This document shows, in pieces, positions 23,946 through 50,826 of a stretch of DNA of 64,000 nucleotides. Each line of letters opens with the position of its first letter. Position 1 is the first letter of the stretch. The DNA comes from a phage. The position numbers were made by a program, and so were the translations under genes. Where the stretch lies: the sequence record PV467749.1. One strand, given 5' to 3'. Under the pieces are notes generated by a model, which saw nothing but the letters and a program-made list of their open reading frames with translations, did not search any database and had not been told where the DNA came from.

Positions 23946-24002
23946 AGTTTTTCCTTCCATAAATAATAGGTATAAATTTATACTAATATTTATGGAACTC
24001 AT

Positions 24003-33053: not shown

Positions 33054-38298
<5,245 letters not shown>

Positions 38299-38304
38299 AG
38301 ATTT

Positions 38305-38380
38305 GATAAATAATATCATAGAGATCAGGGAATATTGCCTTAAATTTAAATGTGGTTTATATTTTTTGATAAATAATATT
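38305..38380 (+). promoter_or_regulatory. tandem late-promoter-like motifs upstream of paralogous virion genes
   Basis: TTGATAAATAATAT occurs twice (38305-38319 and 38368-38380); the second is ~42 nt upstream of ATG 38422. Confidence 0.4.
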
Positions 38381-38421
38381 AAGCAGGGTGTTCCTGCACA
38401 AAATTTGACAAGGAGATTTTT

Positions 38422-39021
38422 ATGAGTCTTAATTCTTTTAACCGTAACTATGGTATGTCTGCTACTGCTCGTGAATACTGGGGTGGTAACAATGGTTTCG
38501 TAACCATCGTTGTTGATCTACCAGCAGATGTTGAAGTTGGTACTACCGCTGTTACTTCTGACGGTTCCGAAATTCAAGATGAAGCACTACAAACTGCAAT
38601 CAGCAATGCTCAATACAACCAATTCATGATTACCCAACTACTACAACAACGTGCAGTACTAGTTACTACTTCCGTACTAGCTCTAGACACCGCTGTTGTT
38701 ATCCCTGCTGACTTTAAAACCGTTGGTGGTAACGTAATCGCGTTTGGTACTAGTGGTGCTGATGTTACAGGTGGTGCTGGTTCTGTTGCTCTAACCTTCA
38801 TCTGTGAACGTCAAGACGTATTTGACAAACAAGAAGTTCGCCCAGGTGCTGCTTACTCTGTACCAGTTGATCCAACTGTTGAACTAGCTAAAGCTATTGC
38901 ACAAGCTAAATTCTTCCGTACCAAATCTTATGTTGCTCTAGGTACTGATGGTGTTGGTGATGCTGCTGCCGCTGACGCTGTTGCAATTAAAGTTCGTGCT
39001 GCTCTACCAGTACAACTATAA
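38422..39021 (+). CDS. putative abundant virion protein (paralog 1)
   Basis: 199 aa; AGGAG RBS; strongly biased codons (CTA, CGT, GGT, GCT); paralogous to next gene. Confidence 0.6.
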   Translation: MSLNSFNRNYGMSATAREYWGGNNGFVTIVVDLPADVEVGTTAVTSDGSEIQDEALQTAISNAQYNQFMITQLLQQRAVLVTTSVLALDTAVVIPADFKTVGGNVIAFGTSGADVTGGAGSVALTFICERQDVFDKQEVRPGAAYSVPVDPTVELAKAIAQAKFFRTKSYVALGTDGVGDAAAADAVAIKVRAALPVQL

Positions 39022-39036
39022 TAGGGGGACTACAAT

Positions 39037-39726
39037 ATGTCTAATACTAATACTTCTTTTGAACGTATCAATGGTTATTCCTTTGATAAAATTCTAGGTT
39101 ACTTCTGTGGCAAAAACGCCCTAGCATCTATCGCAATTAGTAAAATTGGTAATGTTAACGTGCGTGTTACTGGTGCAGTTGGTTCTTTCGCTGGTCTACA
39201 ACGTTTCCTAAACACTGATGTAGCTGATGAAATCGTTGCATATCTAAACGAAAAAGGTATCATCCGTATCGATGGTACTCCATTTGAAGCAGCAACTCTA
39301 GAAGCTGATTATAACGCTGCTTACGCTGCACAAACTAACGTTAAACGTATCGTTGATGTTGTTCAACAACGTGCAGTTATCATCGCTACTTCCGAAATCG
39401 CTGGCAACGACGTTGAGCCATTTGCAGTTACTGGTTTTACCAACGCTGCTGACGGTATCCTAAGTGTTGGGTCTGTTGATATCGCTAGTGCTTCAGTAGT
39501 TACTTTCCTCGTTGAACGTGCTAACGTATTTGATAAAGATATTCAATCTTTCCAAGGCGTTCCAAGTACTGAGATCGAAGAAGGCCGTCTACTAATTGAT
39601 GACCTAACCGCAGTTCCACTACTCGCTAAAGATGGTGTTACTGAAGTTGTTCTACGTTCCCAAGCTGCTGATGCTGCTGGTGACTTCGGTATCAAACTAT
39701 TCAAATTCATCCCAGCGATGGTTTAA
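39037..39726 (+). CDS. putative abundant virion protein (paralog 2)
   Basis: 229 aa; shares QQRAV..TS and F(I/L)xER.(D/N)VFDK motifs with paralog 1; same codon bias. Confidence 0.6.
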   Translation: MSNTNTSFERINGYSFDKILGYFCGKNALASIAISKIGNVNVRVTGAVGSFAGLQRFLNTDVADEIVAYLNEKGIIRIDGTPFEAATLEADYNAAYAAQTNVKRIVDVVQQRAVIIATSEIAGNDVEPFAVTGFTNAADGILSVGSVDIASASVVTFLVERANVFDKDIQSFQGVPSTEIEEGRLLIDDLTAVPLLAKDGVTEVVLRSQAADAAGDFGIKLFKFIPAMV

Positions 39727-39743
39727 TAAATTAAAGATAAAAG

Positions 39744-39773
39744 AAAAGGAGAGCTTTTGCTCTCCTTTTTTTA
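39744..39773. terminator. bidirectional intrinsic terminator
   Basis: AAAAGGAGAGC-tttt-GCTCTCCTTTT hairpin followed by T-run. Confidence 0.6.
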
Positions 39774-40523
39774 TTTGTATGAACGGAACCCTTCAGGTAA
39801 ACCAGGTAGATTCTCTAACCCTTCGTTCGCATTCACTAGCTTTACGTCATAATCATCACTGAAATCATCCGTAGCTAGTTTACGCCCCATGTCTCTAACG
39901 AAGTTGTCAATAATTTCTTCTTCGTCATTACCTGGATGACCTTCCGCTTTTAACTTTTTCCAAAAGTATTCATTATAATCAAAAACAAATTCAACTTCAT
40001 TTGTTTCTGGATTAAGTACTACATCCAAATCAATCCAAGGTTCTTTACGTAAAGTAAAGATTTCCTTTGAATACTCTTGTTGTGTAATCTCTTCATAACG
40101 ATATGCAAACTCGATAGCTTTAAGACGTTTGTCATCACCATCAGGCATTAGTTCGATTACTTCCATATCATACTCTTTTTGAGTAATTGCACCAGTACTT
40201 AATTTAGCATCAAGTAATTTTACATTATACTCATCACGGGTAATCTTGGAATACTTCAATTGTACATCTGCCTGTGCTATTAGATAATCAAGAGTTTCTA
40301 ATACATTGTATTTCTTTTTGATATCCAACTGTGCTACATCAACTTCATATGGTGTTAGATATGTAAGTTCTGCAACTAACATATCAGCTTCATAATCATC
40401 GTTATAGTAGTATGCTTTCGCAATCTCTTTCGCTTTACCAGAAAGTCCCCAATGAGCGGGGACCATCCAGAAAGGAATAAACCTTTTTTTAGCCATTTGA
40501 TTTCTTACCAAAAATTTCTTCAA
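39771..40523 (-). CDS. hypothetical protein
   Basis: 250-aa ORF. Confidence 0.45.
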   Translation of the reverse strand: MKKFLVRNQMAKKRFIPFWMVPAHWGLSGKAKEIAKAYYYNDDYEADMLVAELTYLTPYEVDVAQLDIKKKYNVLETLDYLIAQADVQLKYSKITRDEYNVKLLDAKLSTGAITQKEYDMEVIELMPDGDDKRLKAIEFAYRYEEITQQEYSKEIFTLRKEPWIDLDVVLNPETNEVEFVFDYNEYFWKKLKAEGHPGNDEEEIIDNFVRDMGRKLATDDFSDDYDVKLVNANEGLENLPGLPEGFRSYK

Positions 40524-48322: not shown

Positions 48323-49420
48323 TTACTTAAAAGTATTTACAATTTCTAAAACACTTTCAAGATACTTAGCATCAAAAGTTTCAGTAAATCCTGATGGCAA
48401 CTCTTCAGTACTTACCACACCACTTTCAATGTATTTCTTTATGAACTTTTCCAACAGTAATGGTTGATTGCCATCTTCAAAGTAGCGTTCTATAAGTACT
48501 TCATGCTCGAACTCAGAATTGCGGCTTTGTTCGTTAACACGGCGTTTCATATCACCAGTGATCCCATATTTGTACACCGTCTTGTTATTGTTAGTTAGTT
48601 TTTGTACATAGAAATATCCAGGTTTTGATGGTTGATATCCATATTCACCACATGATGGACATCCTTTACCAGCCATATGTGCTTTTGGTTGTTGGGAGAA
48701 GACACCATGAGTCGGACATACAATATCAATATAATTCTCGCTTAAAGTATATTCAACCAAGCTATAATCATACTTATGGTTATGGATAGGCGACACAAGT
48801 TCAATGAAACGTTCAGTGCTTCTTCCACCTTTACCAGAACATGTACCGCAGCCAGTTTTACCCTTCAATAAAGTTTGGGCTGAAACAGTCCATTCGTGTT
48901 TACCGCGTGTGCAATATACGGTAACTTCCGTTTTATTGTTAACATATTTGGTATTTGGAAATTCAAACGCACCACCATAGTTTTCTTTTACTTTTGCGAT
49001 GAATGATTCAGTACTGTATGCTTCATTTTTATTACAGACAGGACATCCCCTACCAGAAAGAAATTTGTTTGGTGTAATTTCAAAGTAATCGTTATGGTCT
49101 TCATCAGTGCAAAATAGTGTTACTTTTGTTATAGCGTTAGTGTAATTTAGTTTATCAAATTTGAATTTATCTTTACCAAATTTAGTTTCTACAGTACTGA
49201 TGAATGTGTCGTTGTTTGAACGCTGTGACATGTTTGAATAACATGATGCACATGTACATGCAATGTGACGAAGTGCAGACTTGGTGTTTTCTTTCCCACA
49301 CTTGTTACATTTTACTGTTGTTTTACTTGCCTTGAATACTAAAGTACTGAAGTCAAATTCTCCATACTTAGCAGTCATTTGGTTAATAAACTCTTCTTTG
49401 TTGATACTTACGTTTGGCAT
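48323..49420 (-). CDS. zinc-ribbon repeat + T5orf172-like domain protein (free-standing endonuclease-like)
   Basis: 365 aa; three repeats of a KYDYS..VEY...C..HG.F.Q.P..H..G.GCP.C module, then KPGYFYV...KYGIT C-terminal domain; paralog of 60324..61028. Confidence 0.55.
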   Translation of the reverse strand: MPNVSINKEEFINQMTAKYGEFDFSTLVFKASKTTVKCNKCGKENTKSALRHIACTCASCYSNMSQRSNNDTFISTVETKFGKDKFKFDKLNYTNAITKVTLFCTDEDHNDYFEITPNKFLSGRGCPVCNKNEAYSTESFIAKVKENYGGAFEFPNTKYVNNKTEVTVYCTRGKHEWTVSAQTLLKGKTGCGTCSGKGGRSTERFIELVSPIHNHKYDYSLVEYTLSENYIDIVCPTHGVFSQQPKAHMAGKGCPSCGEYGYQPSKPGYFYVQKLTNNNKTVYKYGITGDMKRRVNEQSRNSEFEHEVLIERYFEDGNQPLLLEKFIKKYIESGVVSTEELPSGFTETFDAKYLESVLEIVNTFK

Positions 49421-49560: not shown

Positions 49561-50736
49561 TTACATGAAAGTAACGTTTTTGATAGCGATTTTGCTGTAG
49601 TAGTCAGCAGCGTTACCTAGTGAACTGGTGCTATCGGTCAACTGTACATAGCCATATCTGGTTAGAAAAGTTGTAACGAGTTCCCCAGTGTTAGGGTCCA
49701 TTACAGTACCGGAAGCCATTAGTGGGATGTATGGGCAATAGAACACACCAGCATCAGTTTCAGCGTTACCTTTGTAACCAATTAGGATATCTTCAACATC
49801 ACTTGCATAGGTATCAACGAAGATACGCATGGTGCTGTTTAGAGTACCAACAAATTTAACGTTAGTTGGAGCTTCGAAAGTACCTTCAGTAGTACGTGCA
49901 AAACTAGAAGTAGTTGCAGACTGTAGAATGGTTAGAGCGGTTGGAGAAACAACAGCCCAGTTCGCAGCACCACGTTTGGTACGACGAGCAACTTCGTTCG
50001 CTTGACGGTTGATTAGGGTAGCTAGAGCAGCGTGCTCGTCACCAACGAAGGTCGCAACACCAGTAACTTTAGATTGGTCATAAGTTACAGCAGCAGCACC
50101 AGGTAGTGCACGTAGACGGCTTAGTAGCTCTTGGTCGATTTCAACGGTAACTTCTTGAGCGATTGCAGCCATTAGTTCAGCTTCAACGTCAATACCATGT
50201 TGGGATTGTGCATCTTGTGCAGATTCAACAGTCCAACGTGCAGATAGACGACGAGATTTCGCTTCAACAGTTTCACGTAGAATACGGATGTTAACGCGAC
50301 GACCCATAGTACCTTCTAGTTGGCTAGTAGGAGCAGCTTGTGGGTTGCTGTTGTCTGCGTTTAGGTCACCAGTATAAGACTTAGCGATTTTGTATGGAGA
50401 AAGCATTTCTTCACCAGCGATAACACCAGGAGCGTTGTCAGCATATTGAACACGTAGGGTGTGGATCTGACCAACTGGGCCAGTCATTGGCTGAACACCG
50501 ATGATTTCGTTAGCGATTACGGTTGGCATAACACGACGCATAATTGGTAGAATCACTTTGTTTAGAGTAGCGATGTTACCAGCGGTGGTTGCACCAGAAG
50601 TAGCAGATTCGTTTAGCATTAGTTTACGATGGTTATCAAGTACGGTTTCCATTACGGACTTACGAGTACCTTGTAGACCTTCAACTAGTTTCTCTTTAAC
50701 TGCTACCCATTTGGATTCATTTAGTAGTTGTGACAT
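49561..50736 (-). CDS. major capsid protein (gp23-like)
   Basis: 391 aa; LPIMRRVMPTVIANEIIGVQPMTGPVGQIHTLRVQY matches the conserved gp23 segment; AAGGAG RBS; CTA-biased codons. Confidence 0.85.
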   Translation of the reverse strand: MSQLLNESKWVAVKEKLVEGLQGTRKSVMETVLDNHRKLMLNESATSGATTAGNIATLNKVILPIMRRVMPTVIANEIIGVQPMTGPVGQIHTLRVQYADNAPGVIAGEEMLSPYKIAKSYTGDLNADNSNPQAAPTSQLEGTMGRRVNIRILRETVEAKSRRLSARWTVESAQDAQSQHGIDVEAELMAAIAQEVTVEIDQELLSRLRALPGAAAVTYDQSKVTGVATFVGDEHAALATLINRQANEVARRTKRGAANWAVVSPTALTILQSATTSSFARTTEGTFEAPTNVKFVGTLNSTMRIFVDTYASDVEDILIGYKGNAETDAGVFYCPYIPLMASGTVMDPNTGELVTTFLTRYGYVQLTDSTSSLGNAADYYSKIAIKNVTFM

Positions 50737-50770: not shown

Positions 50771-50826
50771 AGTATGATATTATTTATAGAACTGAAAAAT
50801 TTGATTATTAAAATGCTTTAAAATGT
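50771..50826 (-). promoter_or_regulatory. late promoter (TATAAATA) with conserved upstream module, copy A
   Basis: Minus-strand TATAAATAATATCATAC (plus 50772-50788) ~45 nt upstream of the capsid ATG; ~55 nt similar to 53510-53568. Confidence 0.5.

Follow-up and report, generated by a model that had tools for sequence, protein, structure and literature searches.

Two paralogous virion proteins of RaK2-like jumbo phages and their possible place on the capsid

Introduction

The proteins that decorate or cement phage capsids (T4 Soc and Hoc, lambda gpD, phage L Dec, T5 pb10, and others of the beta-tulip and jellyroll types) are small, abundant, late and uncleaved, and they bind the exterior of the HK97-fold shell in near capsid-protein numbers, often by terminal arms. 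I consider here two adjacent genes whose products are proposed as functional analogs of these proteins. Decoration and cement systems mostly consist of one protein, whereas the present locus encodes two paralogs, without sequence or fold similarity to the known systems. The genes occupy positions 38422-39726 of the window, by which I mean the whole stretch of 64,000 nucleotides (64 kb) of phage sequence record PV467749.1 that was analysed.

The closest described counterparts are the orthologs of the two genes in related phages, given here in the order gene 1/gene 2: RaK2 ORF107w/ORF106w (gp428/gp429), phAPEC6 gp210/gp211, 121Q gp618/gp617 and CBB gp271/gp270. The RaK2 authors, writing in 2013, described ORF107w and ORF106w as abundant and as "two distantly related proteins", and listed them with the sheath protein among those virion proteins identified by mass spectrometry (MS) that they discussed with their SDS-PAGE figure (PMC3622015). 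Both proteins were noted to migrate at the predicted size, i.e., without maturation cleavage, and, no homolog of gp19 having been found, the tail tube was suggested as the place of one of the two (PMC3622015). Tandem MS (MS/MS) of phAPEC6 virions covered 69.8 % of gp210 and 69.9 % of gp211, as compared to 74.9 % of the capsid protein and 68 % of the sheath (PMC7247149), and in CBB virions the coverage was 56 % for CBB_271 and 91 % for CBB_270 (PMC5259590). A later paper that assigns a role to the ORF106w/107w family was not found in the literature searched.

Some parts of the virion seen by electron cryomicroscopy (cryo-EM) have been left without a gene by those who described them. The 10-Å map of phAPEC6 shows an elongated decoration protein in a second layer, in copies equal to those of the capsid protein, and also a fibre-anchoring protein at the centre of each hexamer and a distinct dome at the vertex; the authors assigned a gene to neither the decoration protein nor the anchor (PMC7247149). 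The map of 121Q has the same zig-zag ridges and a protein at the hexamer centre, again with no gene assigned by the authors (PMC5646251). A high-resolution capsid structure from the RaK2/Asteriusvirus clade, or a deposited model of one, was not found in the literature and the PDB as searched.

The gene pair and its family

The region in the window shares 99.9-99.1 % identity with the Escherichia phages BF17, Turkey3, WPEC3, fEgEco12 and Ecwhy_1 and ~82 % with 121Q, PBECO4 and phAPEC6. Judged by these identities, the source is a jumbo myovirus of E. coli of the Asteriusvirus type (RaK2/121Q-like) and not T4. Gene 1 (38422-39021, plus strand) encodes a protein of 199 aa (20.8 kDa) and gene 2 (39037-39726, plus strand) one of 229 aa (24.3 kDa). 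Both products are acidic (pI 4.5) and rich in Ala, Val, Gly and Thr. Gene 1 ends with a double stop, TAA TAG, of which the second codon falls in the 15-nt spacer that separates the two genes.

A direct BLASTP comparison of the two products gives a weak match (E=1e-6, 34 % over 93 aa). The two sets of orthologs compared by hhalign match from end to end (98.8 % probability, E=1e-16, 176 columns), and a single family, PHROG 9326 "virion structural protein", matches both gene 1 (E=2.6e-82; profile positions 1-195 are aligned with residues 1-199) and gene 2 (E=3.4e-81; positions 2-195 with residues 4-229). The product of gene 2 has in addition a helical insertion of ~30 aa at residues ~48-78. By these comparisons the two genes are distant paralogs over their full lengths. 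No third member of the family was found within the window.

Ortholog searches by phmmer and tblastn gave 43 and 78 clusters of family members at 90 % identity. An exhaustive profile search of 1.84 billion representatives (50 % identity) gave 42 hits, of which the weakest (P0159, a lectin/Ig protein of 1054 aa) looks spurious, and those members whose loci were examined have the same genomic layout. The family was found in 74 phage records, all of them RaK2-like jumbo phages of enterobacteria, Xanthomonas or Vibrio, and so far as these searches reach it is a small family, restricted to one clade. Identity to the orthologs is 100 % in fEgEco12 and BF17 (the product of gene 1 being identical to fEgEco12 g364 and its BF17 counterpart), 80 % in 121Q and phAPEC6, 72-75 % in RaK2 and ~60 % in CBB. 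With identities of 80-100 % to orthologs of this kind, the two proteins are probably also part of the virion of the phage considered here.

The arrangement is conserved along with the sequences. The order of the two genes, flanked on one side by an exonuclease gene and on the other by a virion gene of family phrog_13349 and by GroES, is common to fEgEco12, 121Q, phAPEC6, RaK2 and CBB, and in all five the pair lies on the strand opposite to these flanking genes. I find no substantive difference between the pair in the window and its orthologs in RaK2, phAPEC6, 121Q and CBB, which have the same order, flanks and paired upstream motifs. Even where identity falls to ~30 %, in metagenomic relatives, the two paralogs retain their order and their inverted position between the exonuclease gene and the phrog_13349 gene, with a GroES or zinc-ribbon gene beyond the latter, and both paralogs are present in every relative examined. 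Since such distant relatives keep the two in order, the duplication is ancient and both copies are presumably needed.

One divergent lineage, of metagenomic origin, has a second paralog with a Gly-rich C-terminal extension of ~80 aa, in which GG(S/T)GY motifs are repeated (proteins P0146, P0150 and P0151; locus L026, 10001-10903). No match to this extension was found in Pfam.

The original prediction, made from sequence, had taken the two genes for clear paralogs encoding virion-type proteins of unknown role, which could not be assigned by eye to a known T4 structural family. Paralogs they are, though distant ones, by the weak BLASTP match, the hhalign result and the common PHROG. Their virion character agrees with the PHROG 9326 match, and virion proteomics, proposed at the time as a check, has detected the orthologs in purified virions of phAPEC6, CBB and RaK2. 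The statement about the role stands as well, the literature searched offering none beyond the superseded suggestion of a tail tube, while the framing in terms of T4 was slightly off, a T4 counterpart being absent.

Expression signals

Two exact copies of the late-promoter-like motif TTGATAAATAATAT lie on the plus strand upstream of the pair, the distal one at 38303-38316, ~105 nt before the first ATG, and the proximal one at 38366-38379. They are the only two exact copies in the whole window. For the 10-mer core, ATAAATAATA, the count in the window is 5, as compared to 0.67 expected, and 0/100 shuffles reached it. Two of the three other copies of the core are correctly oriented and stand just upstream of virion genes: ATAAATAATAT is found at 50778-50787 (minus strand), ~40 nt before the ATG of the major capsid protein gene (49561-50736, minus strand), and again at 34385-34394 (minus strand), just upstream of the virion gene at 33054-34358. 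The fifth copy of the motif, at 23959 (plus strand), lies inside a minus-strand open reading frame (ORF).

The two copies that precede the pair are kept in 121Q, phAPEC6, RaK2 and CBB. The distal copy retains the core GATAAATA(A/T)T in these four phages, and in the proximal copy TTTGATAAATAA is invariant in an alignment of five phages from three genera. An ATAAATA late promoter has been predicted before structural genes of CBB and GAP32 and likened to T4 TATAAATA (PMC5259590). The motif TTGATAAATAATAT resembles both the CBB/GAP32 consensus and the T4 sequence, and promoter function for the two copies, together with late timing, is a reasonable inference. Because ATAAATAATAT precedes the capsid gene and the virion gene at 33054-34358 as well, the comparison suggests that the late-promoter consensus extends beyond the ATAAATA given for CBB.

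Directly downstream of the proximal motif, ~25 nt before the ATG and near the expected start of the transcript, RNA folding predicts a stem-loop on the plus strand (38383-38397; GCAGG-GUGUU-CCUGC, with a stem of 5 bp). It is kept in 121Q, phAPEC6 and CBB, and in RaK2 it appears with a compensatory double change (GTAAG...CTTAC). The stem-loop may stabilise the 5' end of a late mRNA. Each gene has its own ribosome-binding site, as read from the plus strand: AAGGAG at 38410-38415, 6-7 nt before the ATG of gene 1 and invariant in the five-phage alignment, and AGGGGGA at 39023-39029, within the spacer and 7 nt before the ATG of gene 2. Beyond gene 2, a terminator scan found an intrinsic terminator on both strands (39741-39772), with a stem of 14 pairs, a loop of 4 nt and T-runs on either strand. 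It is predicted to end the transcripts both of the pair and of the convergent virion gene at 39771-40523 (minus strand).

No other plus-strand coding unit seems to be present in the minus-strand block around the pair, which extends from ~8.6 kb to ~58 kb of the window; the remaining plus-strand ORFs in the block overlap minus-strand genes. The block holds terminase pieces, GroES, the sliding clamp, DNA polymerase and the head module, and the pair is positioned in its packaging/head region, with the terminase to one side and the capsid module to the other. With late transcription from the motifs supposed, the pair would be a self-contained late expression cassette, inverted within a long block of replication and packaging genes.

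Codon usage

Codon statistics were ranked among the 68 ORFs of the window. By effective number of codons (ENC), gene 2 (28.7) and gene 1 (30.0) are the two lowest of all, the median being 41. The codon adaptation index (CAI), for which the capsid and sheath genes alone served as reference, is 0.80 for gene 1 and 0.77 for gene 2, as compared to 0.75 for the capsid protein, 0.72 for the sheath, 0.65/0.41/0.46 for three tail-tube paralogs and 0.57 for DNA polymerase. The bias extends to Leu, for which the pair and the capsid gene use CTA, a rare codon in E. coli, almost exclusively (25/28 and 27/31 Leu codons, respectively, as compared to 22/83 in the DNA polymerase gene). No tRNA genes that would explain the preference for CTA were found within the window; the CTA bias of late genes may be driven by a tRNA-Leu(UAG) that the phage encodes elsewhere.

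A horizontal origin, which might be suspected from the difference in codon usage and GC content, was considered and rejected: the capsid and sheath genes are biased in the same direction, and the bias of the pair is for this reason taken to be the phage's own high-expression bias.

The features of the locus that had been put forward from the sequence are all found: the two upstream copies of the motif, exact in both cases; its probable late character, inasmuch as it matches the ATAAATA consensus predicted for CBB and GAP32 and also precedes the capsid gene; strong ribosome-binding sites before the respective ATGs; a strong terminator with its 14-pair stem and T-run, bidirectional as it turns out; and a codon usage sharply unlike that of the bulk genome, as the ENC values attest.

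Predicted structure

AlphaFold2 gave fairly confident models of both proteins (pLDDT 81.5 and pTM 0.77 for the product of gene 1, 79.6 and 0.76 for that of gene 2). Both consist of ~20 disordered residues at the N-terminus, a beta-strand, a helix of ~26 residues and a beta-alpha-beta (ferredoxin-like) core. The disordered end is also the most conserved part. In the product of gene 1, residues 1-30 form the most conserved block (column identity 0.81-0.92), while pLDDT is <50 for residues 1-19, and the same pattern, conserved yet disordered, is found for residues 11-30 of the product of gene 2. Such a pattern is typical of arms that become ordered only in assembly, and of lattice subunits. Over its whole length the pair is 72-75 % identical to its counterparts in RaK2-type phages, where the capsid protein is 80 % identical, so that by sequence the two are about equally slow to evolve.

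A solved virion protein resembling the pair was not found. Searches of Pfam and NCBIfam returned sub-threshold noise (OxRdtase_C, GLMA_C, and Mmp10, with 25 bits where the cutoff is 350), sequence searches of the PDB with each protein and with a 60-sequence family profile gave no credible match, and Foldseek against BFVD retrieved solely members of the family and unannotated proteins of jumbo phages. The possibility that the pair represents a gp24-like vertex paralog of the major capsid protein was rejected, hhalign giving it a probability of 0.2 %.

Possible place in the virion

I tentatively favour the view that the pair forms an outer lattice, of the decoration or cement kind, on the T=28 capsid in phages of the 121Q/phAPEC6 type. 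The cassette, in which a tandem of putative T4-like late promoters is followed by a 5' stem-loop, a Shine-Dalgarno site for each gene and a strong terminator, would yield two very abundant, acidic and uncleaved virion proteins. These would assemble at the scale of the capsid, in roughly 10^3 copies and probably as a hetero-oligomer, their conserved N-terminal arms (N-arms) docking onto the capsid protein, and would make up the elongated lattice protein that stands at ~1:1 with the major capsid protein, the anchor at the hexamer centre, or both. A more specific version, in which the lattice is a heterodimeric cement docked by the N-arms on the capsid of RaK2/121Q-type jumbo phages, with a ferredoxin-like fold new among decoration proteins, is somewhat less likely.

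A copy number on the scale of the capsid is suggested by expression signals at or above those of the capsid class, by the lack of cleavage, by the acidity of the proteins, by the putative docking arm and by the tolerance of an appended domain. Given such a number, and given capsid densities to which no gene has been assigned, an outer capsid lattice or decoration is the best single explanation. The motif ATAAATAATAT is common to the upstream region of the capsid gene and, in two copies, to that of the pair. The abundance of the orthologs in virions, the slow evolution of the pair and the retention of both paralogs in distant relatives fit this view as well. A pI of 4.5 argues against direct binding of DNA. 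Proteins displayed externally often tolerate add-on domains, and distant orthologs of gene 2 tolerate a C-terminal domain of ~80 aa.

Several considerations weigh on the other side. The head, rather than the tail or the interior, is a proposed location, and no homology or fold match was found to Soc, Hoc/Ig, gpD/beta-tulip, the Dec OB-fold or jellyroll cement proteins. The quantities relied upon are indirect, in that MS coverage is not stoichiometry, codon adaptation is an indirect proxy for copy number, and the late timing depends on a motif whose promoter status is, in this clade, a prediction. Nor is the pair alone in its coverage: the small virion proteins gp347 (75 %), gp306c (66 %) and gp253 (66 %) of phAPEC6 have similar values (PMC7247149) and are equally good candidates for the decoration density.

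The heads of 121Q and phAPEC6 also contain an inner body like that of phiKZ, a proteinaceous rod of 91 x 18 nm detected by bubblegram imaging, and the pair might instead be internal head proteins that build it. The proteins of the phiKZ inner body belong to families of paralogs, as Thomas et al. reportedly described in 2012, and the pair, itself paralogous, resembles the phiKZ inner-body and T4 internal proteins in being a set of presumably high-copy and head-associated proteins from a clade that has an inner body. The literature found names no gene for the inner body, which by volume arithmetic would need hundreds of subunits of ~20-25 kDa, a demand that fits the high expression of the pair, and the location of the genes between the terminase and the capsid module fits as well. 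I nevertheless consider this reading unlikely. The inner-body proteins of phiKZ and the internal proteins of T4 are cleaved by the prohead protease, and no conserved protease site was seen to be common to both paralogs here, E18 of the gene 1 product aligning with G in that of gene 2. The RaK2 orthologs are reported to run at full predicted size, unprocessed (PMC3622015). The pair has no detectable similarity to the phiKZ and T4 proteins, its acidity (pI 4.5) sits poorly with being embedded in DNA and with the DNA-binding character of those proteins, and the C-terminal domains added in distant orthologs suit an exposed position better.

More improbable is that one or both proteins belong to the tail, whether as the tube or as some other repetitive part, such as a decoration of the sheath surface or the rings that anchor hairy fibres. 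The pair is like T4 gp19-type tail tube proteins in size and abundance, and it was size (21-24 kDa), beta content and abundance that led the RaK2 authors to their suggestion of a tube (PMC3622015). The tails of phAPEC6 and CBB, moreover, carry decoration rings and whiskers that lack assigned genes. The tube itself may be rejected on the grounds that tube genes adjoin the sheath gene, that the profile of the pair is unrelated and that its fold differs. In fEgEco12, the sheath gene g295 is directly followed by gp19-like tube paralogs, g297-g299, annotated as tail tube and ~85 kb from the pair (g363/g364), and these match the tail-tube families phrog_4542 (E~1e-80 to 1e-86), phrog_13438 and phrog_45. 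The profile of the pair aligned by hhalign with the tube protein g297 gave a probability of 0.1 %, no match of the pair to a tube family was found in PHROG or Pfam, and its AlphaFold models do not have the beta-sandwich fold of the tube/Hcp type. The CAI values of the pair lie above that of the sheath and far above those of the tube paralogs, and a minor accessory of the tail, with its tens of copies, would have no need of capsid-level expression.

As an observation on the tail genes themselves, g297-g299 (L006, 5477-8135) comprise two members of phrog_4542 and one of phrog_13438, with CAI values of 0.65, 0.41 and 0.46, which suggests one main tube protein and two minor tube-like proteins.

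Least probable is that the two are very abundant late proteins with no part in the architecture (a scaffold, a chaperone or a cytoplasmic lattice) that co-purify with virions or are trapped in them, for although the pair sits among replication genes and beside the phage GroES, and although single-stranded DNA-binding protein, a RecA-like protein, topoisomerase and thymidylate synthase were also detected in these virion preparations, coverage of the pair was 56-91 % in three independent phages and laboratories as compared to 6-17 % for proteins of the contaminant type, the RaK2 orthologs are named on the figure of the virion gel, the late-promoter motif is common to the capsid gene, and a conserved N-arm is typical of lattice subunits.

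Neighbouring genes

Upstream of the pair lies the gene for an RNaseH-like 5'-3' exonuclease (37224-38282, minus strand). The convergent gene on the other side (39771-40523, minus strand) encodes a protein of phrog_13349, "virion structural protein", which has internal I-T-x-x-E-Y repeats and a weak codon bias (ENC 43.5). The protein has been detected in the virions of RaK2 and CBB and is not listed in the proteome of phAPEC6. The gene probably begins at the ATG at 40496, where the annotation of fEgEco12 places its start, and not at the TTG at 40523.

The large terminase (34391-36693, minus strand) corresponds in the annotation of fEgEco12 to several ORFs, g367, g368 and g369, labelled "DNA packaging protein Gp17", "terminase large subunit" and "large terminase subunit". 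It is annotated similarly in phAPEC6, RaK2 and CBB, and the gene may be split or interrupted by an intron or intein. In the head module, where the major capsid protein gene lies with those for the protease and the portal, a gene of the HNH/endonuclease type (48323-49420, minus strand; phrog_681 and phrog_559) is found directly downstream of the capsid gene and is probably a homing endonuclease inserted into the module.

Significance

As something found by scanning a genome, the pair repeats what virion proteomics has reported from 2013 onwards: the two proteins, their paralogy and their abundance are already documented as a component of RaK2-like virions, and they do not constitute a new kind of system. 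Their interest lies in where they might be placed. The RaK2/121Q-like phages, which include some of the largest coliphages and Klebsiella phages in culture, are under development for therapy, and several parts of their virions, namely the outer capsid lattice, the fibre anchor at the hexamer centre, the vertex dome and the inner body, are still without a gene. The pair ranks high, by expression and by abundance, among the virion components that have no role, and is for this reason a prime candidate for one of these parts. Its location would fill a gap in the architecture of jumbo-phage capsids and could offer a scaffold for display at high copy number. If the pair should prove to be a heterodimeric cement lattice, it would represent a new structural class of capsid-stabilising protein and would identify a density that two cryo-EM studies left without a gene.

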